This document shows, in pieces, positions 5,076 through 60,565 of a stretch of 64,000 nt of DNA; positions within the stretch are counted from its first letter, which is position 1; each line of letters starts with the position of its first letter. The position numbers and the translations under genes were made by a program. The notes below the pieces were generated by a model. That model saw only the letters and a program-made list of their open reading frames with translations. It did not search any database and was not told where the DNA came from. Origin of the DNA: Nitrospirota bacterium (GTDB lineage Bacteria > Nitrospirota > UBA9217); NCBI GenBank assembly GCA_029858565.1, contig JAOUEV010000012.1:278-64277 (forward strand), written 5' to 3'.

Positions 5076-6281
5076 TCAGCTCCGATAGGCTGCGTTGATC
5101 TTCACATACTCGTAGGAGAGATCGCAGGTCCAGACGGTTGCCTCGCCTTTTCCCTTGCGAAGATCGATCAGGATATGGACCTCCCGCTGCTTGAGCGAAG
5201 CGGTCGCCTCCTTGTCCGCTGCCTTGCCAAGGCCCACTCCCCGCTCAACGATCTTTGCTTTTCCGAAAGTGATGTCGGTCCGCGTCTCTTCCATATCAAC
5301 ACCGCAGCTCCCGAGCACGGCCATGATCCGGCCCCAGTTGGCATCCTCGCCAAAAAGCGCTGTTTTGACGAGGCTGGACGTCGCAACAGCTGTTGCAGCG
5401 CGCTTTGCCTCAGCGGGATTCTTGGCACCCTGCACCGTGATCTGCACCAGCTTCGTGGCGCCCTCGCCGTCCTTCACCACCTGCAGGGCAAGGGATTTCG
5501 TCACCGCGTCCAGGCAGGCCTGGAGTTTTTTCATGTCCTTGCTGCCCGGCGCCGGCTTCTTGTTCTCTGCTGCGCCGTTCGCCATGACCAGCACCATATC
5601 GTTGGTGCTCATGTCGCCGTCCACGGTGATCGCGTTGAACGAGCGCTCCGTGGCCGACTGCAGCATCTTCTTGAGCACCGGCGCCGCGACGGCCGCGTCG
5701 GTCACGATGAAGCACAGCATGGTCGCCATACCCGGGTGGATCATGCCTGAGCCCTTGGCGATACCGGCCATGGTGATGGTCTTCCCGTCGATCTGCTCCT
5801 GAACGGCGACTGTCTTGACAAAGAGGTCCGTGGTCATGATCGCTTCCGCGGCCTGGCTCCAGCCCGCCGGCGCAAGAAGCCCCCCGGCTGTGGCGATCCC
5901 GGTGCGGACCTTCTGCATGGGAAGCAGCTCGCCGATCACTCCGGTCGAGGCAACATACACCATATCGGGTTTCACACCCAGTTCCTGGGCAGCGATCTCG
6001 GCTGTCTCTTTGGCGTCAGCGAGCCCCTGCTTGCCGGTACACGCGTTGGCGCACCCGCTGTTCACCACGATCACCTGGCCTTTGCCGGATTTCGATTTTG
6101 CCATGCCGAGCACTATGGACGCTGCCTTGACCTTGTTCTGCGTGAACACGCCGGCAACGGCCGCCTCGCGATCGGAGGCGATGATCGCGAGGTCCTTTTT
6201 ATCGGTCTTCTTGATCCCGCAGTGGATGCCCCAGGTCTTGTAACCGGGGACGGTGAAGTTCTTTGCATCGAGATTTTTCAT
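5076..6281 (-). CDS. argJ: Bifunctional glutamate N-acetyltransferase / amino-acid acetyltransferase ArgJ
   Basis: 401-aa ORF with the self-cleavage ATML motif (GMATMLCFIVTDA) and overall ArgJ pattern. Confidence 0.9.
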   Translation of the reverse strand: MKNLDAKNFTVPGYKTWGIHCGIKKTDKKDLAIIASDREAAVAGVFTQNKVKAASIVLGMAKSKSGKGQVIVVNSGCANACTGKQGLADAKETAEIAAQELGVKPDMVYVASTGVIGELLPMQKVRTGIATAGGLLAPAGWSQAAEAIMTTDLFVKTVAVQEQIDGKTITMAGIAKGSGMIHPGMATMLCFIVTDAAVAAPVLKKMLQSATERSFNAITVDGDMSTNDMVLVMANGAAENKKPAPGSKDMKKLQACLDAVTKSLALQVVKDGEGATKLVQITVQGAKNPAEAKRAATAVATSSLVKTALFGEDANWGRIMAVLGSCGVDMEETRTDITFGKAKIVERGVGLGKAADKEATASLKQREVHILIDLRKGKGEATVWTCDLSYEYVKINAAYRS

Positions 6282-6361
6282 GGCCCTTCCTCTTATGAAA
6301 GAGTTGCCCCGAAGCGCCGCGTCCGGCTGATTCTCGGGGATTCACATCCTGTTCGCTTGTC

Positions 6362-18117: not shown

Positions 18118-19608
18118 TTGAACTATCGTATTCTTATCAGCGCAATTTTTTACACAGCTCTTTTCCTTGTCCTGCCGCTTTCGGCTTCGGCATCCACGAC
18201 CTATATCCCGGTTGGCGACGAGATCTATCCCCTGCTTGACCGGCTCGAAGCAGAAGGGGTCATCACGTCCGGGCTTCTCAATACCCGGCCGATCAGCCGG
18301 GCTGAAGCGGAACGCCTGTACCGGGAAGCGGAGGGGAATTCCGCCGGAAGCACCCTTTTTGTTAAGGACCTCGTCGGGTCCCTGCGGCGCAGACTTGGAT
18401 CTTCCACAACAGACCCTTCGAAGATCGGATACGGCGCTGCTGCCTATATCAGGTACATCCGCACTGATACAACGCTTCAGGCACTCCAGTACAATAACGA
18501 CGGAGACAAACCCGCGAAAGGTTCAAACCTGCGTGTTGGCGCTGACCTGCGGCTGGAGAATGCCGGTCCCTTTGCGCTGGACCTGAACCCGGAGTTTCTC
18601 GACACCGGCCCCGAGCGCGAAAATATCATGCATCACGGCTATGCCGTTGTCGGCATTGCAAGGTTCGATATGGTGCTCGGCAAGGACGCGCAATGGTGGG
18701 GCCCGGGGCGTCACGGAGCGCTCCTGCTCTCGAACAATGCCGATCCGTTCACCATGGTCCGGCTCACCAATCCCGAGCCCATAGTCCTTCCCTGGGTGTT
18801 CAAGCACTTGGGCGATTTTCGGTTCAGCTTCTTTATCACGCAGCTTGAACGGGACCGCGACTTTCCCGAACCCTACCTCTGGGGCATGCGGTTCGACTTC
18901 AAACCAGGCCGAACCTTCGAGGTCGGCATTCACCGGACCGCGATCCTCGGCGGAGAAGGCCGTCCCAACGATTCATCGATCTGGGGCAAAAGCCTCTTTC
19001 CCTTCTTCGACGCCGAGAACACCGGAACGATCAAGGAGCCGGGAGACCAGCGAGCAGGCTTTGATCTGACCTGGAGCATACCTGCCGGCCGCCAGCCCGT
19101 TCAACTATACCTTGAGATGGACGGCGAGGATGAAAAAAATAACCTGCCGAATATCTGGGCATGGATCGGCGGTGTGTATCTGCCCCGCATCGGCTCATGG
19201 GAACGGCTTGGTTTTCGCTTTGAGGTCGGTTCGACCATGGGCAGGCCCCTCGCGCCCTCGGTCTGGTACAATCACAGCATCTACACCTCGGGGTATACTT
19301 ATAACGGCAGGATCATCGGTCATCATATCGGGACCGATACCCGCGATCTGTATTTCGAACTCTCCTATCACCTGCCTGAGCGCGACAGCCGGTTCTTGAT
19401 CGCCTACGACCGACACGAGCACAATATGCGCGGCCCGGGAAGCAGCGAGATCGATCACGAAGCCATTGCGGGGGCCGACATGGCGCTATCCGATCACATC
19501 GGCCTGAAAGCTTTCTACAACCACGCCTGGGTCAGAAATTTCGGCAACCAGTTCGCGCCGATGCAGGAGATAGGCAGCTTTACCTGCGTGGTCAGCTATA
19601 CCTTTTAA
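18118..19608 (+). CDS. Capsule assembly Wzi-family outer-membrane protein
   Basis: Signal peptide, ~490 aa, beta-barrel-like composition ending in aromatic residues; overall resemblance to the Wzi family. Start codon uncertain (TTG at 18118). Confidence 0.55.
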   Translation: MNYRILISAIFYTALFLVLPLSASASTTYIPVGDEIYPLLDRLEAEGVITSGLLNTRPISRAEAERLYREAEGNSAGSTLFVKDLVGSLRRRLGSSTTDPSKIGYGAAAYIRYIRTDTTLQALQYNNDGDKPAKGSNLRVGADLRLENAGPFALDLNPEFLDTGPERENIMHHGYAVVGIARFDMVLGKDAQWWGPGRHGALLLSNNADPFTMVRLTNPEPIVLPWVFKHLGDFRFSFFITQLERDRDFPEPYLWGMRFDFKPGRTFEVGIHRTAILGGEGRPNDSSIWGKSLFPFFDAENTGTIKEPGDQRAGFDLTWSIPAGRQPVQLYLEMDGEDEKNNLPNIWAWIGGVYLPRIGSWERLGFRFEVGSTMGRPLAPSVWYNHSIYTSGYTYNGRIIGHHIGTDTRDLYFELSYHLPERDSRFLIAYDRHEHNMRGPGSSEIDHEAIAGADMALSDHIGLKAFYNHAWVRNFGNQFAPMQEIGSFTCVVSYTF

Positions 19609-26504: not shown

Positions 26505-28700
26505 TTATTCCTGGGAAGGCTGGAACCACCCATGGGTGATCCCCCATATCCCTGGATCATGACAATTGATGGCGCATGACGTGGGGTAACTCCCAAGAGT
26601 CACCGCAGCCCCAATAAGGCTGTACTGATCTCCGCCGATCCCGGCGTAATGGTCATACAGCATAGAATCATGCACCCAGCCCCATTGCGTGTTCGAACCG
26701 TGCACTTCGTGACAGGAATTGCAGACGATCGATGATAAGATCGACCCACGATACTTCCATCCGTCGGGTTCCGTCTGCAGGTGCAGCATGTGAAGATTGA
26801 TATAGGTTCCGAAGAGCGGCAAGTCATCGTAAGCCTTCCCCGTGATCCCAAGGTTCACATCTCGGAACCGAGTCTTTATGTTGGGAATCGTATACGCAGG
26901 TAATGCACCAGAGGTGTTGAAAAGGTCCACCGCATAGTTCCCGCCAGCCTGCATTCCCAGAATAGCCTCCTTCGACACGGCGCCGTACGCTGCGTGGCAC
27001 GCAAAGCACAGATCATAATCGCTCTCATCAGCAGTGGTGAAATAAGTTGTCTTCGTGCTCGGCAGCGTCAGATTCCTGGCCAGCAGACCGACATTCGCGG
27101 TTCCATGCCCGTTCCCGTGGCATCCGGTGTTCACGCTTCCGTTCCCCACACAGGTCAGCCCCTTTAGCTTATGACCGAAGCTCTTGCTCCAGTTCGCGCT
27201 GATCTCGGCGCTGGCCCTGTAGGGCGCTATCCCGATCGTCGAGCCGTCGTTGAACGGTGCTGTAGACGTACCGCCGGTGATGAACGTCGAGGTCGCGCCA
27301 GAGGCATCATGGCAGCTCAAACAGAATGGTTCAAGTGTCGATGCTGTTGAGTAAGCTATTGTTGCTCCCGTATCCCCGTTCCGGAGACGCACGGTCCCGC
27401 CCATATGTATGGACATGTCGTGACACACGAGGCACTGTTCGGTCAATGGATCGTTCCCCGGTCCACGCGTCACGTGGTGCGATTTATTCGCGGCATTCGC
27501 CCCAAAGTCCCCGCTCGCGCCCATTACCGGCCGACGCGTGCCCATGGCGTTCACATGGCAGAGCCAACAGGCCGGAGCACTCACGCCTGCGGTGCCGTAC
27601 CACGCCGGTGTCTCTCCGGCGTGACAGTCCGTTGTAGCGCACGCACCGGTCTCCTGGCCTGTGTCCGCGGTCCAGGTGCCGCTTGTATTCGTGCTGTCGA
27701 AGTAGACGAGCAGCACCGTCGGGTCAGGTGTGTCGAGCACACCGCTGGCATGGGATGGACGGCTAGGATAGTTCAGGTGACATTTGGAACAGGAGAAACC
27801 TATGCTCCCCACATGCTTGCTGTGCTTGCCCGCAACGCCGCTCCCGTTCGTGAGCAGTGGATCGAGGACCGTCGAGTAGGCAGCCGTGTGACAGGTCGTG
27901 CAGGTCGCCGGTAGCGCCCAGGTTCCGCTCCCGTACCACGACAGCGTATCCGCCCCGTGGCAGGAGATCGTAGCGCACTGGCCGGTGCGGGCTCCGGTAT
28001 CGTTCGTCCAGGTGCCGGTAGTCGCTACGATATTGAAGATCACCAGGTTTTTTGAAGGATCGGCAGTATCCAGCTGGCCGTTCGCATGGGTCGTTTGACC
28101 GGGATACTGATAGTGGCATCGTTCGCAATCGATGGCGCGTGAGGTCACATGTTTGACATGCCGTCCTGCTGGAGCTGTACCGTTTATTACTGCCGGATCG
28201 AGCTCCCGGGAAAAAGTGGAGCTGTGGCAGGTCGTGCAAGCAGGCATCGTCCAGGTGGAGCCGTACCAGTTCACCGTGGCGTTCCCATGGCACGCGACGC
28301 CTGCGCAGCTGCCTGTACCCGGGCCAGTGTCGTTCACCCATGCACCCGAGGGGCCGACAACGCTGAGAGAAACGAGGCTCACCGTCGGGTCACCGGTATC
28401 AAGGGTCCCGTTCATGTGCGTGGCGGTGTTCATATACCCGCTGTGGCAGCGCTCGCAAGGGATCTGACGTTCGCTGAAATGCTTCACATGCCTGCCGTAA
28501 GTGCCGGATCCGTTCGTGACCAGGGGATCAAGGGCAGCAGAGTTCGTGCTGCTGTGGCAACGGACGCACTCCGAGAACGGCTCGCTGGAATGGGGCTGCC
28601 GTGCGAACAGGGAGTCCGGACCGTGGCCTGAATTGCAGCCTGCCGCGATCAACAGCAGGACCGCTGAAAGTAATGCGCGATACGCGTTCATCGGAAACAC
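26505..28700 (-). CDS. Large multiheme c-type cytochrome lipoprotein (OmcB-like extracellular cytochrome), ~11 CxxCH + 4 CX3-4CH motifs, three ~95-aa tandem repeat modules
   Basis: Lipobox LIAAGC. CxxCH motifs: CVRCH, CERCH, CTTCH, CERCH, CTTCH, CSKCH, CWLCH, CLVCH, CLSCH, CFACH, CNSCH. CX4CH in each repeat (CAGVACH, CATISCH, CATTDCH) and CAINCH. Repeat unit CxxCHS..LDP..NG..G.HVKH...CxxCH..TH.NG.LDT.DP...W.NDTG..TG.CAxxxCHG..WYG. Confidence 0.8.
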   Translation of the reverse strand: MFPMNAYRALLSAVLLLIAAGCNSGHGPDSLFARQPHSSEPFSECVRCHSSTNSAALDPLVTNGSGTYGRHVKHFSERQIPCERCHSGYMNTATHMNGTLDTGDPTVSLVSLSVVGPSGAWVNDTGPGTGSCAGVACHGNATVNWYGSTWTMPACTTCHSSTFSRELDPAVINGTAPAGRHVKHVTSRAIDCERCHYQYPGQTTHANGQLDTADPSKNLVIFNIVATTGTWTNDTGARTGQCATISCHGADTLSWYGSGTWALPATCTTCHTAAYSTVLDPLLTNGSGVAGKHSKHVGSIGFSCSKCHLNYPSRPSHASGVLDTPDPTVLLVYFDSTNTSGTWTADTGQETGACATTDCHAGETPAWYGTAGVSAPACWLCHVNAMGTRRPVMGASGDFGANAANKSHHVTRGPGNDPLTEQCLVCHDMSIHMGGTVRLRNGDTGATIAYSTASTLEPFCLSCHDASGATSTFITGGTSTAPFNDGSTIGIAPYRASAEISANWSKSFGHKLKGLTCVGNGSVNTGCHGNGHGTANVGLLARNLTLPSTKTTYFTTADESDYDLCFACHAAYGAVSKEAILGMQAGGNYAVDLFNTSGALPAYTIPNIKTRFRDVNLGITGKAYDDLPLFGTYINLHMLHLQTEPDGWKYRGSILSSIVCNSCHEVHGSNTQWGWVHDSMLYDHYAGIGGDQYSLIGAAVTLGSYPTSCAINCHDPGIWGITHGWFQPSQE

Positions 28701-36892: not shown

Positions 36893-39800
36893 TTGATGAA
36901 AGACGCCCCCAAACCAAAAAAAACCCTGAAGAAACGAACCGGTGCGCCGCGGTCCGCAGGCCGCAGGCCTGCAATGCAGGACGATCGTCTCGACGACCAG
37001 CTCCTGCACGAGCAATCCCGCGTACTGTTCGAAACCATGTCGCAGGGCGTCGTGTTCCGCGATCACGAGGCAAGGATCGTTGCCGCCAATCCTGCGGCTG
37101 AGCGTATCTTCGGCAGGAGCCTCAAGGACCTCGCGGGAAAGACCAGCGCCGAAGTGCATTTGAACGCGCTCGGCGAGGACGGGAAACCGCTTGCACCCGA
37201 CCAGTTTCCCGCGGAGACCGCGCTCCGTACCGGGAAACCGGTGACCGACTTTATCCTTACGATCCAGAATCCCGGAGATGTTCGGCGTCGCTGGATCAAG
37301 GTGAACGCCATTCCTTTTTCCCTGCGTGATTCACCGAAGCCGCTGGTTTACGTCCTGTTCGAGGACATCACAGAACGCCGCCAGATGGCGCTGGAACTGG
37401 AAAAGGCCCGCGATCATCTGGAGCAGGAGGTCCAGCAGCGCACCAGGGAGCTGATGAACGCCAACGAGGCGCTCGGCACGGAGATCGCGGTCCGTGAACG
37501 CGCCGAGTCTGCATTGCGGGACAGTGAAGAACGCTTCCGCAGGCTTGCGGAGAATGCCCAGGACCTGATCTATGTCTATCGTCTCGTTCCGGACCGTCGG
37601 TTCGAATTCGTAAGCCCCTCCTCGACCGCGGTCACCGGTTACACCCCCGAGGAGCACTACGCCGATCCCGACCTGGGCATGAAGATCGTGCACACCGATG
37701 ACCGCCGGAAGCTGCTTGATATGGCAAAGATCGCCGCGATCCCCTCTGAGCCCCTGGTCCTGCGCTGGGTGCGCAAGGACGGCCGGATCATCTGGACCGA
37801 GCAGCGCAATATTCCCATCACCGATGCCGCGGGCAGGACCGTGGCCATCCAGGGCATTGCCCGGGACATCACCGACCGGATCAGGATGGAGGAGAAGCTT
37901 CAGGCGAACGAGCGCTTCCTGCAGACGATCATCGAATCGGAGCCCGACTGCGTCAAACTCCTGGCACGGGACGGCACGCTCCTTATGATGAACCGGGCGG
38001 GTCTCGCCATGATCGGCGCGAAGTCCATCGATATGGTGCAAGGCAGATCGGTCTATGGGATCATCCTTCCTGAATACCGGCCCGGCTTCATAGCTCTCAC
38101 GGAATCGGTGTTCGACGGCAAGTCAGGGACTCTGGAGTTCGAAGCCGTGGGATTCAAAGGACGCCACATCTGGCTAGAAACCCACGCCGTCCCGCTCCGG
38201 GATGAGCAGAACGAGATCATTGCGGCACTCGGCCTCACCCGGGACATCACGGAGCGAAAGCGGATGCAGGAAAAGCTCCGGGAAAGCGCGGAAAGCCTGC
38301 AGGAAGCCCAGCGCCTGGCTGCCATCGGCAGCTGGGAATGGCTTCCCCGCACCGGAGAGTTTCGCTGGTCGCTCGAAACCTGCAGGATCCTGGGAATTGC
38401 CCCGTCCGCGGAACCGGCCTACGAAACATTTCTGCACGCTGTTCACGATCAGGACCGCGAGAGCGTGACCCGGGCGCTCGACGCCGCGCTCCGGCGCAAA
38501 CAGCCCATCGACATAGAGCACCGGGTCATCCGTCAGGACGGGAGTGTTCGCATTGTTCACTCACGCGGCCAGATCACCTGCGACCCCACCGGGGAGCCGG
38601 TCCATATTCTCGGCACATTGCAGGACCTCACCGAGCGGCGACGCGCCGAGGACCTGCTGCCGCGCATAGCCCAGCAGATATCGGAAAAGACCGGGGACGA
38701 CTATCTTCGCGCTGTTGCTGAGTTCACGGCAAGGGAACTGGGAACCGACATCGCCTTCATAGGCGAGATACCCGGTCCCGGCAAGCTTGTGCGCACGGTC
38801 ACGGTCTACGCACAGGGACGGTTTGTCGAAAACTTTGAATACGATCTCCAGAACACACCCTGCGACAACGTCGTGGGGAAAACCGTATGCTTCTATCCCG
38901 ACCGCATCCAAGCCATCTTTCCGAAGGATACCATGCTCGTTGACAGGGGTATGCACAGCTTCGCGGGGATACCGCTTTTCTCGTCCGAAGGAGATCCGGT
39001 GGGCCTTCTTGCAACGCTCGGTTCGCGGCCGATGCAGCCGGGCGATCGGGACCGCATCGTCACGCTCCTCCGGATATTCGCGGGCCGCGCATCCGCCGAA
39101 CTCGAACGCAGGCGTTCGGAAAAAGCGCTCCAGGAGAGCGAAAAGCGCTATCGTCAACTGCTCGAGTCGGTCACCAGTTACATTTACACGGTCACGATCG
39201 AGCAGGGCAGGGCGGTCTCTACCGTCCATGGCTCGGCCTGCGCCGCTGTCACCGGTTACACATCAGCCGAATACGCCGCGGATCCCTTCCTGTGGTACCA
39301 AATGGTCCATGATCCGGACAAGCCCGCTGTTCTGGCCCAGGCGGCCCACGTCATGGCCGGAGGAAAACCCGAACCCCTGGAACACCGTGTTCGCCACAAG
39401 AACGGAAAGCTGGTCTGGATCCGGAATTCCGTGGTGCCCCGGTACGACGACAAGGGCCGGCTTACCTCCTATGACGGCCTGATCGTGGATATCACGGAGC
39501 GCAAGCGGACCGAGGATTTTGTGCGGAACATCCTGGATGCCGTTGATGAAGGCTTCATTGTGATCGACCGCGATTACACGATCATTGCAGCGAACCGAGC
39601 CTATTGCGGACAGATAGGCCTTCCCGCGGGGGATGTCGTGGGAAAGAAGTGCTATGCCGTTTCCCACAAGATCTCCGGCCCCTGCTATCAGCATGGAGAG
39701 GAGTGCGCGGTGCGCACGGCCTTCGAAACCGGCAGGCCTCACAGCGTCGACCACACCCACCATGGCGGTGAAGGAAGGCCTCTTGTTGTCGAGACGAAGG

Positions 39801-41029
39801 CGTTCCCGCTGAAGGACGAATCAGGGAACATTTTCGCCGCTATCGAGATCGTGAACAATATGACCGACCGCCATCGCCTCGAGGACCAGCTTCGCCACGC
39901 CCAGAAGATGGAGGCTGTCGGACTGCTTGCAGGCGGCGTTGCACACGACTTCAACAATATCCTCACGGCGATCGTGGGATACGGAAATCTCCTGAAGATG
40001 AAGACCGCCGGTGACGATCCGCGGCAGACCTACATAGACCAGGTGCTGGGATCGGCTTCGCGGGCTGCGAACCTTACCCAGAGCCTGCTCGCCTTCAGCC
40101 GCAAGCAGATGATCTATCCCCAGCCCATGGACCTGAACGACACGATTCGCAGGGTAGAACGTCTGCTCCAGCGCGTCATTGGAGAGGACATCGATCTTCG
40201 CACCGAGCTCTTTTCCAGCGCGGTCACGATCCTGGCAGACTCAAGCCAGATCGAGCAGGTCCTGATGAACCTTGCTACGAACGCGCGGGATGCGATGCCC
40301 CGCGGCGGCAAGCTCACGATCAGCACCGACACCGCTGTCATTGATGACACCTTCAAGCGGCACCATGGATTCGGGATTCCCGGCACCTATGCCCGCATCA
40401 CCGTTGCCGACTCCGGCGCAGGCATGGACGAGGCTACGCGCGGCCGCATCTTTGATCCTTTTTTCACCACCAAGGAGATGGGAAAGGGTACCGGTCTGGG
40501 GCTTGCGATCGTCTATGGTATCATGAAGCAGAACAGCGGTTACATCACCGTGGAAAGCGAACCCGGCAAAGGCTCGTCCTTCCGCCTCTATTTTCCACTG
40601 ATCGCGGAAGCAGCAAAGGAGACACCGGCCGCCGAGCAGGCGACCTACCAGGAGGGACACGAAACCGTGCTCGTTGCCGAGGATGACACTGCCCTCAGGC
40701 AGTTGACCAGGACCATGATGACCGAGTTCGGGTATACGGTCATCGAGGCTGTTGACGGCGAGGATGCGGTGAGGAAGTTCCGGGAGAACCAGGAGCGCGT
40801 TCAGCTGGTGATCCTTGACGTGGTCATGCCGAAGAAGAACGGCCGCGAGGTACGCGACGAGATCCGGGCGATCCGGCCCGATGCCAAGGTGCTGTTCATC
40901 AGCGGCTACGGCGCCGACATCCTCGCATCCAAGGGGCTGGGCGAAGGGACTGATGAGTATCTGCTCAAGCCGGTCTCGCCTATGGACCTGCTCCGCAAGG
41001 TGCGCAAGGTCCTTGACAGCGCCAAATGA
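36893..41029 (+). CDS. Hybrid sensor histidine kinase: multiple PAS domains (+GAF-like region), HisKA, HATPase_c, C-terminal receiver
   Basis: 1378 aa. Repeated PAS signatures; H-box [17 protein letters not shown]; G-boxes [22 protein letters not shown]...GTGLGLAIV; receiver [13 protein letters not shown]...[11 protein letters not shown]...KVLFISGY. One PAS region has a Cys-rich insert ([19 protein letters not shown]). Confidence 0.9.
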
Positions 41030-47039: not shown

Positions 47040-48287
47040 GTGTCGTGTTTAATGAATATGCCCTTAGCGCGCGAACGAAAGCTCTACAGGACCTTTATGG
47101 TGACCGTCAGTCTGGTCATCACCCTGGCCCTGTCTGCGGTCTTTCTCGGTATGGCGATCAGGACGCGCCAGCTGATCAGCGAGGAAAACGTGGTGCGGGC
47201 CCGCTCGCTTTTCAACAGCATCATCCTTGCGCGCGAATGGAACGCTCATTACGGCGGCGTATTCGTGGAGAAAAAGGCGGGCGTGTCGTCCAATCCCTAT
47301 CTCAGGAATCCGGACATCCGGACCAGTGACGGCAAGACATACACAAAGCGGAACCCGGCCCTGATGACCCGGGAGATCTCCGAACTGGCTGCGCGAAAAG
47401 GGCTGTTTACCTTCCATATCACCAGCCTCAAACCCCTCAACCCGGCGAATACCGCAGATGCCTTTGAGCAATCGGCGCTGAAAAATTTCGAAACAGGATC
47501 TGCCGAGCAATTCATGACTGATAGGGCCGGCGGAGCGTTGTTCCGCTACATGGCGCCGCTCTTTGTGGAGCGTCCCTGCCTGCAGTGTCATGAACACCAG
47601 GGCTACCGGATCGGCGACGTGCGGGGCGGTATCAGCGTCAGCTTCGACGTGCAGGACGTTGCCGCCAAGATACGGAACAATACCCTCGCCATCATCTTCT
47701 TCTCTTTCCTTACCATCCTGTCGCTGCTGGGACTGATCTACTACTTCTCCATGCGGCTGATCAAGAAGATGTACGAGGCGAGGCGGCATATCGAACGCCT
47801 GGCCACGATCGACGGGCTGACGGGAGTGTTCAACCGGCGCCACCTGGTTTCCCGGTTCGTCGTCGAATTCGCGCGCGGCCGGAGGCACAAGAAACCCCTG
47901 GGCTGCATCATCCTGGACCTCGACCGCTTCAAGAACGTCAACGACACCCACGGGCATCTTACCGGCGATAAGGTGCTGAAGGAGGTTGCCCTGCGCCTCT
48001 CTACGTCGGTCCGTGATTATGACATCCTGGGCCGCTACGGGGGCGAGGAATTCCTCGTGGTGCTGCCGGAGACCGGGGTCGCGGAATGCACGCGGCTGGC
48101 AGAGCGGATCAGGTCCGTCATTAAGGAACAGCCGATCGAGGGCATCACGGTCACAGCCAGCCTGGGTGCGACCGTCTCTTCAGACCGGGACGAAACCATC
48201 GACGACATGGTCAAGCGGGCTGATGATGCCCTGTACCGCGCCAAGGACGAAGGCCGGGACCGGGTGATCTTTACCTCGCCGGCATAG
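47040..48287 (+). CDS. Diguanylate cyclase (GGDEF) with periplasmic heme-c (CxxCH) sensor domain, DUF3365-like
   Basis: TM - periplasmic ~180 aa containing CLQCHEHQ - TM - GGDEF domain (LDLDRFKNVNDTHGHLTGD, RYGGEEF). Start could be one of the Met residues at 47040-47058. Confidence 0.8.
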   Translation: MSCLMNMPLARERKLYRTFMVTVSLVITLALSAVFLGMAIRTRQLISEENVVRARSLFNSIILAREWNAHYGGVFVEKKAGVSSNPYLRNPDIRTSDGKTYTKRNPALMTREISELAARKGLFTFHITSLKPLNPANTADAFEQSALKNFETGSAEQFMTDRAGGALFRYMAPLFVERPCLQCHEHQGYRIGDVRGGISVSFDVQDVAAKIRNNTLAIIFFSFLTILSLLGLIYYFSMRLIKKMYEARRHIERLATIDGLTGVFNRRHLVSRFVVEFARGRRHKKPLGCIILDLDRFKNVNDTHGHLTGDKVLKEVALRLSTSVRDYDILGRYGGEEFLVVLPETGVAECTRLAERIRSVIKEQPIEGITVTASLGATVSSDRDETIDDMVKRADDALYRAKDEGRDRVIFTSPA

Positions 48288-48505
48288 CCCGGCGCGCGCG
48301 CCTGAGAGATGACCGCTCGACCCTTAGCCTTGCTTCTTTCCCCTGCGAACATTTTCCCTGCAAACACCTTGTGGCAGCCGAACTTTAGTGCTATAGTTGC
48401 AATTGACGCGCACTGCTGCAGCTGAAACTCCTGACAGACTTGGTTCCGTCTGCGGTATAATCATTTTTCCAGTGTAATTACTTCGCCTGATCACGAGGTT
48501 CATGC

Positions 48506-50941
48506 ATGGAAAATGAGATTCCAGAACAAGCTCCCGCGCCGGAATCCTCCGAGCCGGCGAAGGGATACCGGAAGCAGCCCAAAAAGGAACAGAAATCCGC
48601 CCCCCCTGCTGACAAGCCGAAGAAGGCCTATACCCCTCCCAAACCCTCCATCACTGTGCAGAAATGGCCCGCGCTGCTCGAAGCGATCAACAGCGGGAAC
48701 ATCGATACCCTCAGACAGCTGATCGCCGATGGCGTGAACGTGAATACGGTCCGCGAGGGATTCTCGCCTCTCATGATCGCATCGACCGCCGGCCAGGTCG
48801 AGACCGCCAGGTTCCTCCTGCAGGCAGGGGTAAACGTCAATGACACGGACGATGACGGTAACACCGCCTTTCATCGGGCCGCGTCTTATCAGTCCGGCAC
48901 AGCTATTATCGAGCTTTTGCTGGAGTCAGGCATCAACGTGAACGCGAGGAACCGCTTCAAGAAGACCGCGCTGATGCTCGCGGAGGAACTGGGCCATAAG
49001 GACATCGTCCGCTCCATCCAGGCGCATCTCGATCGGGCGGCCATAGACGAGCAGGAGTGGCAGGCCTTTCTGAACACTCCCGAGGGCGAGCCCTATAAAC
49101 GCAGGAGACAACTTGACCTTTTGAACCGGTATGCGGAGTTCATCTGGGCGCCTCCTGTGGGCCTTGCCTTTGCCGGACTTCTCCTGGGAGCCCTGTTCGG
49201 CGCGGCCATGCTCACCGCCTTCATCGGACTGGTCCTGGGAAGTCTTGGTATCGCGGCAGGCGTGCATCAGACGCGGACCCTGACCGCCTATTTCGACTCC
49301 CTGGAACCGCTGCCGCACCTCGACATTCACATCGTCCGCGCAAAGCGAAAGGCCCGCGAACCGCTCCCCCCGGTGCAGAAGAAGAAACCTGCTGAGCCTG
49401 CCTTTGCCGTTCCGGCGGCGCCGCCAGCTGCTGCGCCGCCTGCTTCTCCGGTCGTCGTTGCTGCATCGGAAAAAGCGGCTCCCTCTGTTCCGGCCGTCAC
49501 TCCTGGATCCGGGGACGCGGAAGCTGCTGATGCTATCCTCGTTACGGAAGAAAAAGCGGCTCCTGCCTCTTCCGCAGCTGTTCCTATTCTCGAAGAGGCG
49601 AGGGCCGCTGCACCCCTTGTCGCGCCCGCTCCTCCAAAGCCCGCGCCAGAACCGGTTAAAACCAGGGAACCTCATATTGATCCCGTTCTTCCAAAACCCG
49701 CATCTGCAGCTTCTGTCGTTGTTCGCACTCCTGCGGCGCCGGCTTCGGCCGCCGCAAGAGCGGGCCGACCCAAAGCAACGCCTGCACCTTCCGGCCGATC
49801 CTTTGAAATGCCTGACAAGCGGGTATTGATCATCGCCGCGGCCGCGCTTCTCGTGATCGCGCTCCTGGGGACGGCATTCATGTTACGGCGCGACCTGGAG
49901 CGTTGGTATTTCGCAAAGCAGCTCCGGTCACGGGGATTCGACACCTCCCCTCATGCTGTTCCGGAGGCTGCCGAGAAAAATGACCTGGAGAGCATTGACC
50001 TGTTCATCAGGGCAGGCGTTTCCCTTGACGCGGCCGATGGCAAGGGAAGGACCGCGCTGATGATCGCAGCTGAAAAAGGCCGCGCGGACATGCTCGCGAA
50101 GCTCATCGAGAAGGGTGCGAATGTCAACTTCACCGCGCCGGCGAAGAAAGGTCCGGTCTCGGCGCTCCAGGCGGTCCTGTCGGTCCCTGACCTCAGCGAA
50201 GCTCACCTGCGGGTCCTGCAATATCTGCTCGATCACGGCGCCGATGTCAAGGCCCGCGACTCGTCAGGCCGGACCGCTCTGTTCTTCGCAGCGGAGCGGG
50301 GCCGCGAGCAGGTTGCCGCGCTGCTGCTGGACCACGGAGCGGAGGTGAATGCGACGGATGTGCGCGGCGACTTTCCGCTTCTTTCCGCCGCGTGCGGCGG
50401 GCATACCGGCGTTGCCAGACTGCTCCTGGACAGGGGGGCCGACGTAAAGCAAACGATGCACGACCAGACCCCGTTCCTGTGCGCGGTTGAAGAAGGCCAT
50501 CTTGGCACTATGAAGCTGCTTCTCGAACGGGGAGCGGATGTCAACACGCAGACCGCGGGCGGCGTGACGGTCCTGACCATTGCATCGGGGCTGGAGAACC
50601 TTGCCGCGGTCACCCTGCTGCTCGAAAAAGGGGCCGATCCCGCGAGCGGCTATCTCCCCGCGCCGTTCCTGGCGCTTTCGGGACGCAAGGTCTCGATCCG
50701 GGCGGCGAACAGCAGGATTAGCGCGGTGCTTCGTCAGGTGGCAAAGGCTGCTGCACGCGATGGCTATACGATCACCCTGGATGCTGTTGAGGACCGGAAG
50801 GTGACGCTCAGGACAAAGGATTCCTGGAACAGGGTCCTGCATAAGCTTGCCGTGAACAACAATCTGCTGCTGCTCGTCAAGGACAGGGAAGTTGTCGTTC
50901 TGTCCTACGATCCCGCCGCTGTTAAAAAGACGCCTTTCTGA
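48506..50941 (+). CDS. Membrane protein with N-terminal ankyrin repeats, TM hairpin, Pro/Ala-rich linker, third TM, second ankyrin array and C-terminal STN-like (secretin/TonB N-terminal-like) domain
   Basis: Ankyrin consensus repeats (GFSPLMIASTAGQVETARFLLQAGVNVN, ...TALMIAAEKGRADMLAKLIEKGANVN, ...TALFFAAERGREQVAALLLDHGAEVN). Hydrophobic segments at ~aa 215-260 and ~aa 440-460. Linker is low-complexity (PAPPAAAPPASP...). C-terminal ~90 aa ISAVLRQVAKAAARDGYTITLD...WNRVLHKLAVNNNL resemble an STN domain. Confidence 0.75.
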   Translation: MENEIPEQAPAPESSEPAKGYRKQPKKEQKSAPPADKPKKAYTPPKPSITVQKWPALLEAINSGNIDTLRQLIADGVNVNTVREGFSPLMIASTAGQVETARFLLQAGVNVNDTDDDGNTAFHRAASYQSGTAIIELLLESGINVNARNRFKKTALMLAEELGHKDIVRSIQAHLDRAAIDEQEWQAFLNTPEGEPYKRRRQLDLLNRYAEFIWAPPVGLAFAGLLLGALFGAAMLTAFIGLVLGSLGIAAGVHQTRTLTAYFDSLEPLPHLDIHIVRAKRKAREPLPPVQKKKPAEPAFAVPAAPPAAAPPASPVVVAASEKAAPSVPAVTPGSGDAEAADAILVTEEKAAPASSAAVPILEEARAAAPLVAPAPPKPAPEPVKTREPHIDPVLPKPASAASVVVRTPAAPASAAARAGRPKATPAPSGRSFEMPDKRVLIIAAAALLVIALLGTAFMLRRDLERWYFAKQLRSRGFDTSPHAVPEAAEKNDLESIDLFIRAGVSLDAADGKGRTALMIAAEKGRADMLAKLIEKGANVNFTAPAKKGPVSALQAVLSVPDLSEAHLRVLQYLLDHGADVKARDSSGRTALFFAAERGREQVAALLLDHGAEVNATDVRGDFPLLSAACGGHTGVARLLLDRGADVKQTMHDQTPFLCAVEEGHLGTMKLLLERGADVNTQTAGGVTVLTIASGLENLAAVTLLLEKGADPASGYLPAPFLALSGRKVSIRAANSRISAVLRQVAKAAARDGYTITLDAVEDRKVTLRTKDSWNRVLHKLAVNNNLLLLVKDREVVVLSYDPAAVKKTPF

Positions 50942-51062
50942 CGCCCCTGTTCCCGCCTAGCCCGTGCACGGTTGACAACGAGACCAGGTACCGCTTTCAT
51001 CTGTCTATTTGACGGGGTCGGGACGCGTGGTTCACCCCGGGCTGACTGTCGGCTCGAAAAAA

Positions 51063-51100
51063 AACGAGGCGCCCCCATTCGGCGCCTCGTTCAGTAGTTT
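51063..51100 (-). terminator. Rho-independent terminator downstream of the minus-strand lipoprotein gene
   Basis: 11-bp perfect stem aacgaggcgcc/ggcgcctcgtt; on the minus strand it is followed by TTTTTTTT. May also terminate the plus-strand ankyrin gene. Confidence 0.7.
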
Positions 51101-51132: not shown

Positions 51133-51753
51133 TCACTTCTTCAGCATTCCCATCTTCTCGCCTATCTCCTTTGCAACATACTCGGAGGTCTCATCAATCG
51201 CATTGGCCTTGTCCTTGTCATCGGGCTTCGGCACAAGGCAGCACCCGCCGACCCTACCCGCGGTCGCCGCGTATTTGCCATGGCCGACCTCCTTTGCCCC
51301 AGGCCCTTCGAACATCTGGGCAATGACATGGAGCTGATGGATCGTGCCCTGGGTGACCGTTGCCGTGGGCGTCCAGACCACATAGAGGTAGTCCGCGCCC
51401 ACCTTCTGCTGAATGTCCTTGATCTTTTTCTTGTCCGTGTTGTTGTAATCCTCTTCGATCTCAAGATAGGCCGAGGAGTAGGGCCCCTTGATCTTGACCG
51501 GATAGTTCGGTATGGCCTGGGCCGCCTGCTTGTGCGGCATGACCTGGAAGCGCGTGTTCTTGCGCAGCGCTTCGGTCATGCGCTGGGCCATGACCACATT
51601 GGCTTCGCTGTCCAGACCGGCGATCACCGCAATGCTCTTTCCTTTCGGCCGGTAGTCCGTTTCAATGAGCGAAAACGTGTCGAAACACCCTGCAAGCAGT
51701 ATCGTCACTGCGAGTATGAACGCCATGCGGATCGATTGTCCCATCCCTGCCAC
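51133..51753 (-). CDS. Lipoprotein, paralog pair member 1 (TolB-N/CsgG/LpoB-like fold suspected)
   Basis: Lipobox LLAGC; 206 aa; shares with the upstream gene the pattern G.IAV..G.D..A.V..A...T..L......V...YPV.IK...DY..VVW and a KK C-terminus. Confidence 0.6.
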   Translation of the reverse strand: MAGMGQSIRMAFILAVTILLAGCFDTFSLIETDYRPKGKSIAVIAGLDSEANVVMAQRMTEALRKNTRFQVMPHKQAAQAIPNYPVKIKGPYSSAYLEIEEDYNNTDKKKIKDIQQKVGADYLYVVWTPTATVTQGTIHQLHVIAQMFEGPGAKEVGHGKYAATAGRVGGCCLVPKPDDKDKANAIDETSEYVAKEIGEKMGMLKK

Positions 51754-51769: not shown

Positions 51770-52402
51770 TTATTTCTTAGCGGTCTTTGTCCTGTCCGCG
51801 AGGTCCTCGGCCAGGTCCTCCGCTGACCCCCGCAGCAGCGCGTCGATGTCCTTGCCCTCCGATCCTCCGAAGAGGAAGCAGGACTGGCTGCGGCTTCTTC
51901 CGAAATCGCTGTATCCCACGATTTTGCCCGGCGGGTATTCGAACAGGTTCCCGATGATCGACGCGCCGTAGCTCACGCTGTTCCGGGAGGAGTAACGGGA
52001 AAGACCGGCGACCCAGACGACCAGGACATAGTCCGTCTTGAGCGCGCCATGCATGGCGTCCACCTTGGCCTTCTCGCCCTGCGCGGGCCAGACCGGCTTG
52101 CCGCTGTCCTTGGGCTCAGCGGTCTTGATGTTCACGGGATACTTCCCGACGCGCCGGTCCACTTCGGCCTGGCTCAGGACCTTGAGGGTGCTCTTTTCCT
52201 GCAGGCTTTTGGTGACGTATTCGGCGAACTTGACGTCCGCGTCGTCCGTACCGCCGCTCACTACCGCGATCGAGCCGGTCCGCGGCTTGTATCCTTCCTG
52301 AAAAAAGTCAAAGGGCACATTCGTGGCGCAGCCCGTTGCCAGGGCAAGGACCGCCAGAAACAAAAAAGGGGCCATCAGCCGCACACATCTGCTGGTGATC
52401 AC
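51770..52402 (-). CDS. Lipoprotein, paralog pair member 2
   Basis: Lipobox LATGC. Probable GTG start at 52402 preceded by AGGAGG (an alternative ATG at 52375 would give too short a signal peptide). Paralogous to the 51133 gene. Confidence 0.55.
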   Translation of the reverse strand: MITSRCVRLMAPFLFLAVLALATGCATNVPFDFFQEGYKPRTGSIAVVSGGTDDADVKFAEYVTKSLQEKSTLKVLSQAEVDRRVGKYPVNIKTAEPKDSGKPVWPAQGEKAKVDAMHGALKTDYVLVVWVAGLSRYSSRNSVSYGASIIGNLFEYPPGKIVGYSDFGRSRSQSCFLFGGSEGKDIDALLRGSAEDLAEDLADRTKTAKK

Positions 52403-52928: not shown

Positions 52929-53249
52929 ATGAAGAGCGTATCAGCAAAAAAAGGTGCATATATCGGCGCAGGAGCAGGACTGGTGCTCTTCGCTGTTTTC
53001 GGACTTCTTCCAGGAAGCCTGCTTGGCGGAGCAGCAGGGATCAAGGTGGCGGGAATGCTGTTCGGCCTCCCTCTTGAGCCGGGCATCCTCTCACGGGCGA
53101 TCGTGCTGATCTCGATGCTCGTGGGCGTCCTGGTCGCGGGCATCGTGATCGTGACCGCAACATCGACCATCGGCTGGCTGGCCGGCAGGATGATGGAAGG
53201 CGCTGCGGAAAAGGGCGCTGGGAAGGCAGAACAGGGACTAAAAAGCTAA
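52929..53249 (+). CDS. Small glycine-rich membrane protein, tandem paralog 1
   Basis: AGGAGG RBS then ATG at 52929; 106 aa, two hydrophobic Gly/Ala-rich helices (GAGAGLVLFAVFGLLPGSLLGGAAG...). Confidence 0.5.
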   Translation: MKSVSAKKGAYIGAGAGLVLFAVFGLLPGSLLGGAAGIKVAGMLFGLPLEPGILSRAIVLISMLVGVLVAGIVIVTATSTIGWLAGRMMEGAAEKGAGKAEQGLKS

Positions 53250-53313: not shown

Positions 53314-53628
53314 ATGAAGAACGAAACAGTAAAGACGGGAATGAAGATCGGTGCAATGGTTGGCGGGATCCTCTGGGTGGTGTTCGGTATTATGGCAGGC
53401 TTCTACTTCGGCAGCTACGGCACGCTGTTCATCCTGCAGAAGCTCATGGGCGGCACGGTCGAGCCCACGCTCTTTGTCCGCGCGGCGGTTGTAGCGGGCA
53501 TCGGCGTCGGCATCGCGGCAACGGCGGCAGTGAGCATCGTGGTCGGCGGCCTGGCAGGAACGGTCCTCGGCTTCATCGTCTCCCCCAGGAAATCCCTGGA
53601 AGAGGCAAAGGCAGAGTCGAAGGCGTAA
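53314..53628 (+). CDS. Small glycine-rich membrane protein, tandem paralog 2
   Basis: AAAGGAG RBS; 104 aa; same two-helix Gly-rich architecture (GAMVGGILWVVFGIMAGFYFG ... VVAGIGVGIAATAAVSIVVGG) and the same C-terminal ...AEKGAG/...EEAKAESKA. Confidence 0.5.
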   Translation: MKNETVKTGMKIGAMVGGILWVVFGIMAGFYFGSYGTLFILQKLMGGTVEPTLFVRAAVVAGIGVGIAATAAVSIVVGGLAGTVLGFIVSPRKSLEEAKAESKA

Positions 53629-53736: not shown

Positions 53737-54603
53737 TCAATCGAACTGCGGATAGTTCCTGCTGATCGCCGGCCGGTCCATGACCCGCTGGTCCTGGGGC
53801 CGGTCCTTACGGTACGAGCGCACCAGGCCAAGCTTCCATGTATAGACCCTCCCGCACTTCTCACAGGAAACGCCCGCAAGCGCCTCGCCGCAGGATGCGC
53901 AATAGATGACATACTGACGCGAAAGCAGCCGATCGTGTTCCTTGAGATCCACCTGTTTGCCGCAGCATTTCAGTTCACCCGAAAGGTCCGCTCCGCAGAG
54001 ACAGCGGCGGTCCTGGGGCCACGGCAGCATGTCCTCGAGCTTGTAAATGGCCCGCGCGAGGAGGTCCATGAGCTGGTCCTCGGTCGCGTCGCCGAAAAAA
54101 GACTCGGTCAGCCGTTCGCGGATATCGATCATGAGCGGGTCTTCCTTCAGGAAGTGCAGGACCTTCCGCGTCCACCCCTCGCCAGTACCGAGCCGCGAAA
54201 GGCCGCGGAGGTTCTTGTTGGCACGGTAATGCTCCTGAAGGTAGAGCAGCGTCCAGAGCTGCGTCATATCATAGAAGAACTCCAGGATGGGATAGTACCC
54301 GTACTTCGCCTGGATGGAGGCCTCCACCGAGCCGCGGCTCTCGGGGATCCGCGGGAACACGGCGAGCAGCAGGCCCTCCTCGAAATCCTCGTAAAAGAAC
54401 GGGGTCTCCGCCTGCTGCCGGCAGCCGCAGTGGGTGCAGACGATCATGTTGAATTCCCAGCGCAGCAGTGTCTGTTTCACCTGCGGCGTGCGAGACGCAT
54501 CCACCCACGTGATGACCTTTGCTTCGTACTCGCGGTTGCAGCTTGCACAGAGGAAGGCCTCCTGGCTGTAGGACTCGGCCTGATTTATGTGAATCCCTTT
54601 CAT
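53737..54603 (-). CDS. Cysteine-rich zinc-ribbon protein (CpXC-like motifs)
   Basis: Paired Cys motifs CASC...CTHCGC and CLCG...CCGK...CASCGE...CEKCG. ATG at 54603 lies 7 nt after a TATAAT box, possibly leaderless. Confidence 0.45.
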   Translation of the reverse strand: MKGIHINQAESYSQEAFLCASCNREYEAKVITWVDASRTPQVKQTLLRWEFNMIVCTHCGCRQQAETPFFYEDFEEGLLLAVFPRIPESRGSVEASIQAKYGYYPILEFFYDMTQLWTLLYLQEHYRANKNLRGLSRLGTGEGWTRKVLHFLKEDPLMIDIRERLTESFFGDATEDQLMDLLARAIYKLEDMLPWPQDRRCLCGADLSGELKCCGKQVDLKEHDRLLSRQYVIYCASCGEALAGVSCEKCGRVYTWKLGLVRSYRKDRPQDQRVMDRPAISRNYPQFD

Positions 54604-54776
54604 GAATCTATTATACACGAGTGACAGCAAAAAAACACACTTTGAAAATCACCGGCTCTTTGTGGTAGAATGCTGACCCGTAGTGAACAAAAACGCGCTC
54701 TTTTGCCGTTCAACGGCCATAAACTGCACGACCCTGCTGCTTGCAGGTGTGATTAATTATTGCACAAGGAGCACTC

Positions 54777-59383: not shown

Positions 59384-60565
59384 TTGAAAATCATGTCACA
59401 TCGCTCATCACATAACAATGCGCAGTCCCCGTCCAGAGGCGAGAAAGAAGACCTGCTGTTGCGTCTTGCCCTGACCGAACGGAAGCTTTCCCTCACCACA
59501 CAGAAGCTGGAAGCCAGGAATCAGGAGCTTTCGGCCATTTATCGTCTTTCCGAGACCATTGGCAGCGAGCATCATATCAACCGTCTTTGCGAAAAGACCG
59601 TTGAGGAGATCCAGCACACCCTTGGAGCCGGCACGGTCTCGATCCTTCTTCGCGACCATCACACCGGCGATCTGGTAACAGCAGCCACCACCGGCAGGTC
59701 CGGTGAAAGCCTGACCCGGCCCCGCATCAAGCCCGGCGACGGGCTGCTCTGGCAGGTGGTGAAGACCGGCAAGCCGCTTCTGCTTCCCAGCGTCCGGACA
59801 GTGAAAGCATCAGGCGCCAGGACGAGTCCGGCGGGGATCGCGGCTCCGATCAAGACCAAGGATAAGACGCTCGGCGTGATCTACGCTCTGGGCAAACAGA
59901 ATGACCAGGAGTTCACCGCGCGCGAGCGCGACCTTCTGAGCGGCATCGCCAACCAGGCCGCAGTGGCCCTGGACAACGCCACGCTCTACCACGATCTCGA
60001 GAACGTCTTCGTGGGCATCGCCTGGTCCTTTGCATCGGCGCTGGACGCCAAGTCGCCCTGGACCGCGGGCCATTCCAAGCGGGTCACGCAGTATTCCGTT
60101 TCCATTGCCGAGGAACTGAACTATCCGGCAGAATTCCTGCACTCGATCAGGACCTGCGGCCTGCTGCACGACATCGGCAAGATCGGGATCTCAGAGAAGA
60201 TCCTGGACAAGCCCGGCGCCATCACCCGGGCGGAGCACAAGACAATTGCCGAGCACGCCATCCAGGGCGCAAAGATACTTGAGCATATCGACACCTTCCA
60301 GCCTCTCCTGCCGGGCATCCGGCACCACCATGAACGATGGGACGGACGCGGCTTTCCCGACGGCCTGCGGAACGAGGATATTCCGGTGCTGGCCCGGGTG
60401 CTCGCTGTCGCGGACTCCTACGACGCCATCACCTCGGACCGGCCCTACCGCAAGAAACGGAGCCGCGCCGACGCGATCGCGGAGATCAAGCGCTGTTCAG
60501 GCACCCAGTTCGACCCCCTGGTCGTGGAAGCCTTTGTCGCTGTTTCTGCCCACGAAGCGTTTTAA
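59384..60565 (+). CDS. GAF + HD-GYP domain protein (c-di-GMP phosphodiesterase)
   Basis: GAF region (~aa 60-200) then HD-GYP: HSKRV...CGLLHDIGKIGI...HHERWDGRGFPDGL. Promoter-like TTGTAT-17-TAATAT at 59339-59367 and an ATATGCA/TGCATAT inverted repeat just downstream of it. Confidence 0.85.
   Translation: MKIMSHRSSHNNAQSPSRGEKEDLLLRLALTERKLSLTTQKLEARNQELSAIYRLSETIGSEHHINRLCEKTVEEIQHTLGAGTVSILLRDHHTGDLVTAATTGRSGESLTRPRIKPGDGLLWQVVKTGKPLLLPSVRTVKASGARTSPAGIAAPIKTKDKTLGVIYALGKQNDQEFTARERDLLSGIANQAAVALDNATLYHDLENVFVGIAWSFASALDAKSPWTAGHSKRVTQYSVSIAEELNYPAEFLHSIRTCGLLHDIGKIGISEKILDKPGAITRAEHKTIAEHAIQGAKILEHIDTFQPLLPGIRHHHERWDGRGFPDGLRNEDIPVLARVLAVADSYDAITSDRPYRKKRSRADAIAEIKRCSGTQFDPLVVEAFVAVSAHEAF

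Follow-up and report, generated by a model that had tools for sequence, protein, structure and literature searches.

A predicted membrane-embedded ankyrin repeat protein of Nitrospirota ending in an STN/secretin-N0-type domain

A stretch of 64,000 nucleotides (nt) from a Nitrospirota bacterium (assembly GCA_029858565.1, contig JAOUEV010000012.1, positions 278 to 64,277 of the forward strand; the whole stretch is called the window) was analysed for one gene, an open reading frame (ORF) of 811 amino acids (aa) at 48506..50941 (+) with an ATG start, which is present in the ORF list as an earlier note on this DNA had given it. Sequence comparison indicates a real gene and not a chance reading frame, because the searches brought up full-length orthologs as well as over 30 related loci. 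By its Pfam matches the product is an ankyrin repeat protein (Ank, Ank_2, Ank_4), and its last ~90 aa were assigned, from profiles and a structure model, to the STN/secretin-N0 type. The part list of the earlier note (four ankyrin repeats, a hydrophobic hairpin, a linker, a third transmembrane helix (TM3), seven more repeats and a C-terminal segment of ~90 aa) was borne out in full. The parts are given below with the evidence for each, where A1 is the alignment of the full-length orthologs and pLDDT the predicted local distance difference test score of the AlphaFold2 model.

48506..48670, + strand: conserved basic tail at the N-terminus, aa 1-55; M-E, KGY.K..KK and K-W-P are invariant (A1, wider family)
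48671..49030, + strand: ankyrin block 1, four repeats, aa ~56-175 (Pfam Ank; AlphaFold2 helix pairs at pLDDT 83-92)
49031..49144, + strand: helical connector, aa 176-213, with conserved EW..FL..PEG.PY and a Lys/Arg-rich flank ahead of the hairpin
49145..49267, + strand: putative hydrophobic helical hairpin, aa 214-254, 38-40 residues (hydropathy, AlphaFold2, insertion energy, conservation)
49301..49357, + strand: post-hairpin motif LEPLPxLDIHxVRxKRKA, aa 266-284 (A1, AlphaFold2)
49358..49816, + strand: Pro/Ala-rich disordered linker, aa 285-437, ~150-170 aa (composition, pLDDT, indels)
49817..49930, + strand: TM3, aa 438-459, and juxtamembrane amphipathic helix RWY(Y/F)AK, aa 460-475
49955..50635, + strand: ankyrin block 2, seven repeats, aa 484-710 (Pfam; AlphaFold2 helix pairs at pLDDT 85-95)
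50648..50914, + strand: predicted C-terminal STN/secretin-N0-type domain, aa 715-803 (profiles, AlphaFold2 fold, Foldseek)

Pfam returned two blocks of Ank-family matches (E-values of 1e-57 to 1e-32) and no other Pfam family, and two of the families lie well over their gathering thresholds, Ank_2 with 192.8 bits against 27.3 and Ank with 184 bits against 21.1. The full-length AlphaFold2 model was built on an alignment with eight orthologs. It contains four helix-pair repeats in block 1 (aa 54-189) and seven in block 2 (aa 484-707); most orthologs have eight repeats in block 2, with one additional 34-aa repeat compared to the window protein. The N-terminal tail (aa 1-55) was modelled at a pLDDT below 50, is still present in the short paralogs described below, and no signal peptide was found at the N-terminus of the window protein.

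Kyte-Doolittle windows of 19 residues with values above 1.5 begin at aa 212-236 and 435-446. The hairpin region starts with a W-x-P-P cap and carries small-xxx-small motifs and a central G/H/N/P turn that is conserved family-wide. AlphaFold2 placed helices at 216-231 and 234-264 over it with a break at 232-233, and a crude scan on an approximate scale, indicative only, gave two adjoining 17-residue segments with negative approximate insertion energy. A profile of the hairpin module (A7) gave zero matches to other architectures, and the family's own members were likewise not recovered by it, which makes this negative uninformative. In the motif that follows, P268, L269, P270, L272, D273, I274, V277, R278, K280 and A283 are invariant and AlphaFold2 set a helix at 274-282 (pLDDT ~80-85); LEPLPxLDIHxVRxKRKA has no Pfam match. 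The linker was recognised by its composition (25% Ala and 17% Pro over aa 270-470), by a pLDDT below 50 over aa 297-438 and by a length and sequence that differ between orthologs, with indels in A1. TM3 is the most strongly hydrophobic segment of the protein (AlphaFold2 helix 438-475), and together with the juxtamembrane helix it is kept in all members, including the short variants.

The C-terminal ~90 aa are conserved across the family and were compared using several alignments: a family-only profile of the ankyrin-protein C-terminal domain (A2), which was searched against 1.84 billion representative proteins; a combined profile that includes the three small STN-like sequences P0060, P0061 and P0064 (A3); 18 small signal-peptide STN proteins (A5); and 19 ankyrin-family C-termini (A6). 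The search of the 1.84e9 sequences with A2 returned just 23 proteins, among them P0060 and P0061 at an E-value of ~1e-5. Both of these carry PF07660 (STN); P0060 is named 'secretin and TonB N-terminal domain-containing protein' by NCBI (Thermodesulfovibrionales), and P0061, which has a cleavable signal peptide, is named 'HofQ' by the Joint Genome Institute (JGI). When A6 was aligned to A5 using hhalign, the match had a probability of 99.1% (E-value 8.7e-19, 78 columns). PF07660 is matched by 18 of the 18 members of A5 (best E-value 1e-9) and the GspD N0 family PF21305 by 10 of the 18. Against the PDB, A3 matched the N0 domain of PilQ over the full domain (4ar0 at 1.8e-5, 6w6m at 4.7e-5, 4av2 and 9sh1 at ~9e-5, 3jc8 at 4e-3).

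The domain was also modelled with AlphaFold2 on A3, which gave a beta-alpha-beta-beta-alpha-beta-beta order (strands E16-25, E43-47, E53-61, E75-80 and E83-88, helices H26-39 and H62-72) at a pLDDT of 79.6 and a predicted template modelling score (pTM) of 0.69. Foldseek against the PDB gave a probability of 1.00 and template modelling scores of 0.55-0.64 to PilQ, GspD, XcpQ, InvG, PupA and BDI_1681. N0/STN domains predominate among the best 50 matches listed, with the N0 domain of PilQ at the top (0.64) and the FecR-like anti-sigma factor 4m0h second. Other matches listed are the N0 domains of XcpQ, GspD, PulD, InvG, MxiD and EscC, the signalling domains of PupA and FoxA, Xanthomonas VirB7 (2l4w) and the chain 6x62_Ad of the Legionella Dot type IV secretion system (T4SS) outer-membrane complex; most of the remaining ones come from the baseplates of phages or of contractile injection systems.

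Three results weigh against this assignment. The direct comparison with Pfam STN (PF07660) gave 14.5 bits against a cut-off of 28.4 (E-value 0.03, half of the model matched), and a direct Pfam assignment of the C-terminus was dropped, the score being under threshold and a lead only; STN is also absent from the precomputed Pfam annotation of all orthologs, where only Ank families are listed. The ankyrin-only profile A6 reached PilQ (4ar0) in the PDB at an E-value of 0.3 only, so the significant PilQ matches lean on P0060, P0061 and P0064. A confident model was obtained in one of the five AlphaFold2 domain models (79.6 vs 52-62 for the other four). The earlier note had likened the segment to STN domains, and the likeness is borne out by the search with A2, the profile-profile match, the PDB profile matches, the AlphaFold2 fold and Foldseek. 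We therefore assign the C-terminal domain to the STN/secretin-N0 type on profile and model grounds; the predicted fold is that of N0/STN and superposes on solved N0/STN domains. Its sequence places it closest to N0 domains of the PilQ type, and not to the signalling domains of TonB receptors.

The full-length search recovered the entry of the window protein, which bears the name 'ankyrin repeat domain-containing protein [Nitrospirota bacterium]', and seven full-architecture orthologs with 43-53% identity in the best BLASTP segment and 47-59% over the alignment; beyond these seven, the matches share ankyrin repeats only. The orthologs conserve the N-tail, the WxPP hairpin and its turn, LEPLPxLDIHxVRxKRKA, TM3 with the RWYYAKK helix, and the C-terminal domain. 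Further scans added 5 loci in species-representative genomes and 24 in JGI metagenomes, and the family comprises more than 30 related loci in ~10 clades at a 65% identity cut-off. All taxonomically labelled records of the family are metagenome-assembled genomes (MAGs) of Nitrospirota, and among labelled records the architecture was found only in uncultured Nitrospirota. The earlier note had also called the architecture undescribed in bacteria, and this held: NCBI and JGI label the family proteins 'ankyrin repeat' or 'hypothetical', precomputed Pfam shows Ank only, and the combination of ankyrin repeats with STN/N0 was not found in the literature searched. All parts are known; the combination itself is undescribed, in that it is neither annotated in the proteins found nor reported in the literature searched.

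TM3, ankyrin block 2 and N0 form a core module, which also exists alone in short paralogs of three kinds. P0059 (436 aa) starts with a signal-anchor-like MMKLSLFKR and a hydrophobic core, followed directly by Ank2-N0, and P0056 (462 aa) has a short N-tail ahead of TM3. In L022 (1383-2753) and L026 (6936-8327), of 456-463 aa, and in the fragment L012 (1-190), the family N-tail MEDKVPGP..KPKGN..PTARKRPALVE (7 Lys/Arg) is joined straight to TM3-Ank2-N0; block 1, hairpin and linker are missing, which makes these proteins natural deletion variants. The MAG that contains the L012 paralog (GWC2_56_14) also has a full-length copy. A frameshift was seen just ahead of N0 in the ankyrin-N0 gene of L010 (9960-10300 and 10516-11040, on a 614-kb MAG contig), where an assembly error is suspected.

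Membrane topology was judged from these features. The N-terminus is very likely cytoplasmic, because a folded N-terminal region of ~210 aa has no signal sequence ahead of it. A hydrophobic stretch of 38-40 residues with a central G/P/H/N turn is a classic helical-hairpin signature, and the turn residues, the AlphaFold2 helix break and the two segments of negative approximate insertion energy suggest that the chain is returned to the cytoplasm at this point. In the short variants Ank2-N0 would lie opposite the N-tail, because there is a single TM segment between them. Hairpin parity and the three kinds of natural short variants thus favour a periplasmic C-terminal half, and the ankyrin blocks probably occupy both sides of the membrane, with block 2 and N0 in the periplasm. 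Two observations speak against this placement. Lys/Arg residues are about as frequent on one side of TM3 as on the other, or slightly more frequent C-terminally, which does not favour export. In addition, the members of a related STN-like family of 93 aa lack a signal peptide, and the intergenic space ahead of their genes, only 47 nt, is too short to hold one; this type of domain may thus be cytoplasmic as well, and STN homology alone is no proof of a periplasmic location.

The same observations enter into an all-cytoplasmic scaffold anchored in the membrane, which we regard as unlikely: the hydrophobic stretch would cross once, the linker would be periplasmic as in TonB, and TM3 would return the chain, leaving both ankyrin blocks and the N0-like domain inside. 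The C-terminal flank of TM3 is indeed Lys/Arg-rich in the window protein (5 of 15 residues), and the 93-aa proteins without signal peptide occur in the same phylum. Pro/Ala-rich spacers are typical of proteins that span the periplasm, and bacterial ankyrin proteins are mostly cytoplasmic or effectors. A single crossing is at odds, however, with the length and conserved central turn of the hairpin stretch, and the short paralogs, whose basic N-tail is homologous to the long-form N-terminus, would carry Ank2-N0 on the opposite side by their single TM segment. The N-terminus of P0059 has an n-region and an h-region like those of a signal anchor, and the nearest sequence relatives of the domain have cleavable signal peptides; both argue for export of the C-terminal half. 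The 93-aa family itself (P0064, P0120; L016-L018 at 6001-6282) is widespread and is not recognised by Pfam, and it may be a cytoplasmic STN-fold protein.

With block 2 and N0 placed in the periplasm, the most economical reading of the whole would be an inner-membrane adaptor, whose core TM3-Ank2-N0 is periplasmic and to which the long form adds a tethered cytoplasmic ankyrin platform. We give about an even chance to this Nitrospirota-restricted adaptor docking a periplasmic partner via N0. In the proposed arrangement the N-terminal tail and ankyrin block 1 would remain cytoplasmic, the hydrophobic stretch of 40 residues would form a helical hairpin that brings the chain back to the cytoplasm, and the Pro/Ala linker would act as a flexible cytoplasmic tether. 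TM3 would then cross the membrane once and carry ankyrin block 2 into the periplasm with N0 at its tip. With its exposed beta-strand/helix face the N0 tip could dock a partner in the periplasm or the outer membrane, block 1 would bind a cytoplasmic partner, and the protein would so tether an envelope structure, or report its state, across the inner membrane.

STN/N0 domains are the standard means by which components of the inner membrane dock onto machines of the outer membrane (secretins, TonB-dependent transducers), and the characterised ones are protein-docking modules. A docking role is proposed here for N0 because characterised N0/STN domains dock proteins in the pairs PilQ-PilP, GspD-GspC and PupR-PupB. 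PilP binds the N0 domain of PilQ as GspC binds that of GspD (PMC3441751), and the C-terminal STN and CJM subdomain of PupR binds the STN-fold signalling domain of PupB (PMC7186176).

A further step can be taken only tentatively, and we hold it to be less probable than not: the family may form an unrecognised class of trans-envelope adaptors in Nitrospirota, in which a periplasmic ankyrin solenoid offers N0 to a secretin-like, TonB-transducer-like or HR-domain partner, and a second, tethered solenoid held by the hairpin couples this contact to a cytoplasmic partner. If true, this would be a cell-surface signalling or positioning system made from parts that have not been seen together before. 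To our knowledge, STN/N0 domains were known only at N-termini before the PupR structure, and the family would be a second, unrelated inner-membrane protein that ends in an STN domain; it would also, with some probability in its favour, put a long ankyrin solenoid in the periplasm. It would broaden the set of architectures used in searches for trans-envelope signalling and scaffolding proteins, in a phylum with almost no genetics. Current annotation overlooks the STN domain in the family proteins, and alignments A3 and A6 detect it.

The gene order in the window is LpxC, a tetratricopeptide repeat (TPR) protein, two oligopeptide-type ABC ATPases, a GGDEF cyclase and the ankyrin gene, followed by two convergent lipoprotein paralogs, two small Gly-rich TM proteins, a CpXC protein and GyrA. 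The closest relative locus (L001) has this order in common with the window except for the GGDEF gene. That gene encodes a membrane diguanylate cyclase (Tll0287-like sensor and GGDEF) at 47040-48287 (+), directly 5' of the ankyrin gene, and is missing from this position in L001. The following sequence features of the window lie next to the ankyrin gene:

48456-48461, + strand: perfect TATAAT, ~45 nt 5' of the ORF, read from the sequence
48495..48498, + strand: GAGG Shine-Dalgarno-like motif, 7 nt 5' of the ATG, read from the sequence
51062..51092, - strand: GC-rich hairpin and T-run in the convergent gap (terminator scan: 12 pairs, 8/12 GC)
51133-51753 and 51770-52402, - strand: lipoprotein paralogs of ~200 aa with lipoboxes LLAGC and LATGC
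52929-53249 and 53314-53628, + strand: pair of Gly-rich TM proteins

A full sigma-70 site was not found by the consensus promoter scan, and the promoter of the ankyrin gene was not established. The hairpin at 51062..51092 is predicted to be a strong terminator of the lipoprotein gene and possibly works both ways, in which case it would end the ankyrin transcription unit at its 3' limit. Because of the promoter-side motifs and the downstream terminator in the convergent gap, the ankyrin gene looks monocistronic.

Neighbouring genes were clustered across 33 loci. Two outcomes weigh against the adaptor reading: no gene neighbour is conserved family-wide among these loci, and no secretin, TonB-dependent transducer, extracytoplasmic function (ECF) sigma factor or PilP/GspC-like gene was found in the stretches examined. 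A conserved operon partner was accordingly rejected, as no neighbour is universal. The neighbour families present at several of the 33 loci are clade-specific: a Peptidase_S11 DD-carboxypeptidase gene lies divergently 100-300 nt upstream in seven loci of one clade (L002, L005, L006, L008, L027, L030, L033), a 119-aa secreted protein and isocitrate dehydrogenase recur in a second clade, and a methyltransferase in a third. A prepilin-type (N_methyl) gene stands 3' of the ankyrin-N0 gene in L010, and the neighbours in L011 include a gene for a SurA-like chaperone.

These neighbours, with the lipoproteins, are mostly envelope proteins, and the best sequence and fold matches of the C-terminal domain are N0 domains of PilQ. 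Both facts could be read as marks of an accessory or assembly factor of a secretin machine (type IV pilus, type II secretion) or of peptidoglycan remodelling, whose N0 would become part of the N0 ring of the secretin, imitate that ring or engage an HR domain of the PilP/GspC type. Subunits other than secretins can also form peripheral rings with their N0 domains, Xanthomonas VirB7 being an example, and VirB7 (2l4w) and the Dot T4SS chain 6x62_Ad are among the Foldseek matches listed. Each neighbour is limited to one clade, however, where shared ancestry explains it as well as function does, no locus is adjoined by a secretin or pilus-assembly operon, and nothing connects the ankyrin blocks to secretin machines. 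We consider such an accessory role rather unlikely and retain the inner-membrane adaptor.

The adjacent tandem lipoproteins had been proposed in the earlier note as possible co-workers of the ankyrin protein. This suggestion was not supported: the genes are transcribed convergently, occur only in the window and in L001 and belong to no known family, and the pair was rejected as a supported partner. The two lipoproteins are ~25% identical to each other, their only orthologs outside the window are in L001, and neither has a Pfam, NCBIfam or PDB profile match; no similarity was found to the CsgG-like lipoprotein encoded beside small STN genes (hhalign 0.6%). The listed 262-aa ORF of the second lipoprotein probably begins ~52 codons too early.

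Of all neighbours, only the pair of small (~105 aa) Gly-rich multi-TM proteins is shared between clades (at least two). It lies immediately 3' and convergent in L032, L037 and L038, and homologs also occur near the small STN gene in L013. The proteins match no family and are without annotation. Their homologs were located at:

L001, 13632-14365
L032, 632-1272
L037, 1045-1425
L038, 2402-2644
L013, 728-2236

Further observations were made on small STN proteins and on other genes of the window. The signal-peptide STN proteins of ~126 aa form a family with the motif KIYTNKDLEKY, found on metagenome contigs in L013 (6651-7046), L014 (8001-8381) and L015 (3695-4075). Its labelled members are Nitrospirota, its genes are divergent from genes for CsgG-, LPP20- and FlgT-like lipoproteins, and its proteins are labelled HofQ or PilQ by JGI although they have no secretin pore domain. 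Elsewhere in the window, a hybrid histidine kinase of 1378 aa that contains five or more PAS domains is encoded at 36893-41029 (+), a Wzi-like capsule assembly protein at 18118-19608 (+), a GAF and HD-GYP-type phosphodiesterase at 59384-60565 (+) and the CpXC zinc-ribbon protein at 53737-54630 (-). The lipoprotein of 731 aa encoded at 26505-28700 (-) shows cytochrome c3/c7 motifs together with an MtrC/MtrF-like domain and is a candidate outer-surface multihaem cytochrome.

Among known systems, the C-terminal domain is most like the N0 domain of PilQ (4ar0, 4av2, 6w6m, 3jc8), with the same predicted fold, sequence homology across ~80 residues and a conserved Trp starting helix 2. PilQ is a secretin of the outer membrane and has N0 at its N-terminal end, in the periplasm, whereas here N0 closes the C-terminus of an ankyrin protein of the inner membrane. 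Unlike the secretins PilQ, GspD and InvG, the family has no N1-N3, AMIN or pore domain (no matches to Secretin (PF00263) and Secretin_N), and N0 comes last. The N0 domain of PilQ is the surface that binds the inner-membrane lipoprotein PilP (PMC3441751).

The order of parts resembles that of the FecR/PupR sigma regulators (4m0h, PupR CCSSD), in which a cytoplasmic protein-binding domain, a membrane segment and a periplasmic module with STN at the very C-terminus follow each other; this arrangement is reported as unusual and specific to sigma regulators, and the C-terminal position of STN in PupR was described there as new (PMC7186176). Together with 4m0h as second-best Foldseek match, the resemblance would allow trans-envelope signalling of the same kind, in which the periplasmic STN senses an outer-membrane transducer and a relay, perhaps involving regulated proteolysis, frees a cytoplasmic factor held by Ank1. 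In the family, however, ankyrin repeats take the place of the anti-sigma and of the periplasmic CJM/FecR domains, and instead of one TM segment the long form contains three hydrophobic helices as well as a tether of 150 aa. Pfam and NCBIfam gave no FecR or anti-sigma match, and no sigma factor or transducer gene (ECF type, TonB-dependent) was seen beside any family member at the loci examined. The domain is nearest by sequence to PilQ-type N0 and not to TonB-receptor signalling domains, and the short paralogs are without the ankyrin block 1 that would hold the factor. We rate signalling of the FecR/PupR kind as quite improbable.

The closest sequence relatives of the C-terminal domain are the small signal-peptide STN proteins (~126 aa, PF07660; for example P0061 and P0118; Nitrospirota/Thermodesulfovibrionales). 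These differ in that the domain is secreted by itself, with neither ankyrin repeats nor TM helices attached, and their genes adjoin CsgG/LPP20/FlgT-like lipoprotein genes, whereas ankyrin-N0 genes do not. With other bacterial ankyrin proteins, such as the Legionella Dot/Icm Ank effectors, the family shares canonical 33-residue repeats. The NCBIfam effector families scored 40-125 bits against cut-offs of 450-1400, from the repeats alone (best scores: MzaA 125.5 bits vs 800, AnkH 109.5 vs 600), and the window protein is not a member of an effector family. Unlike the Dot/Icm effectors, it is predicted to be embedded in the membrane, with an ankyrin block before and another after the membrane segments and an N0 domain at its end.

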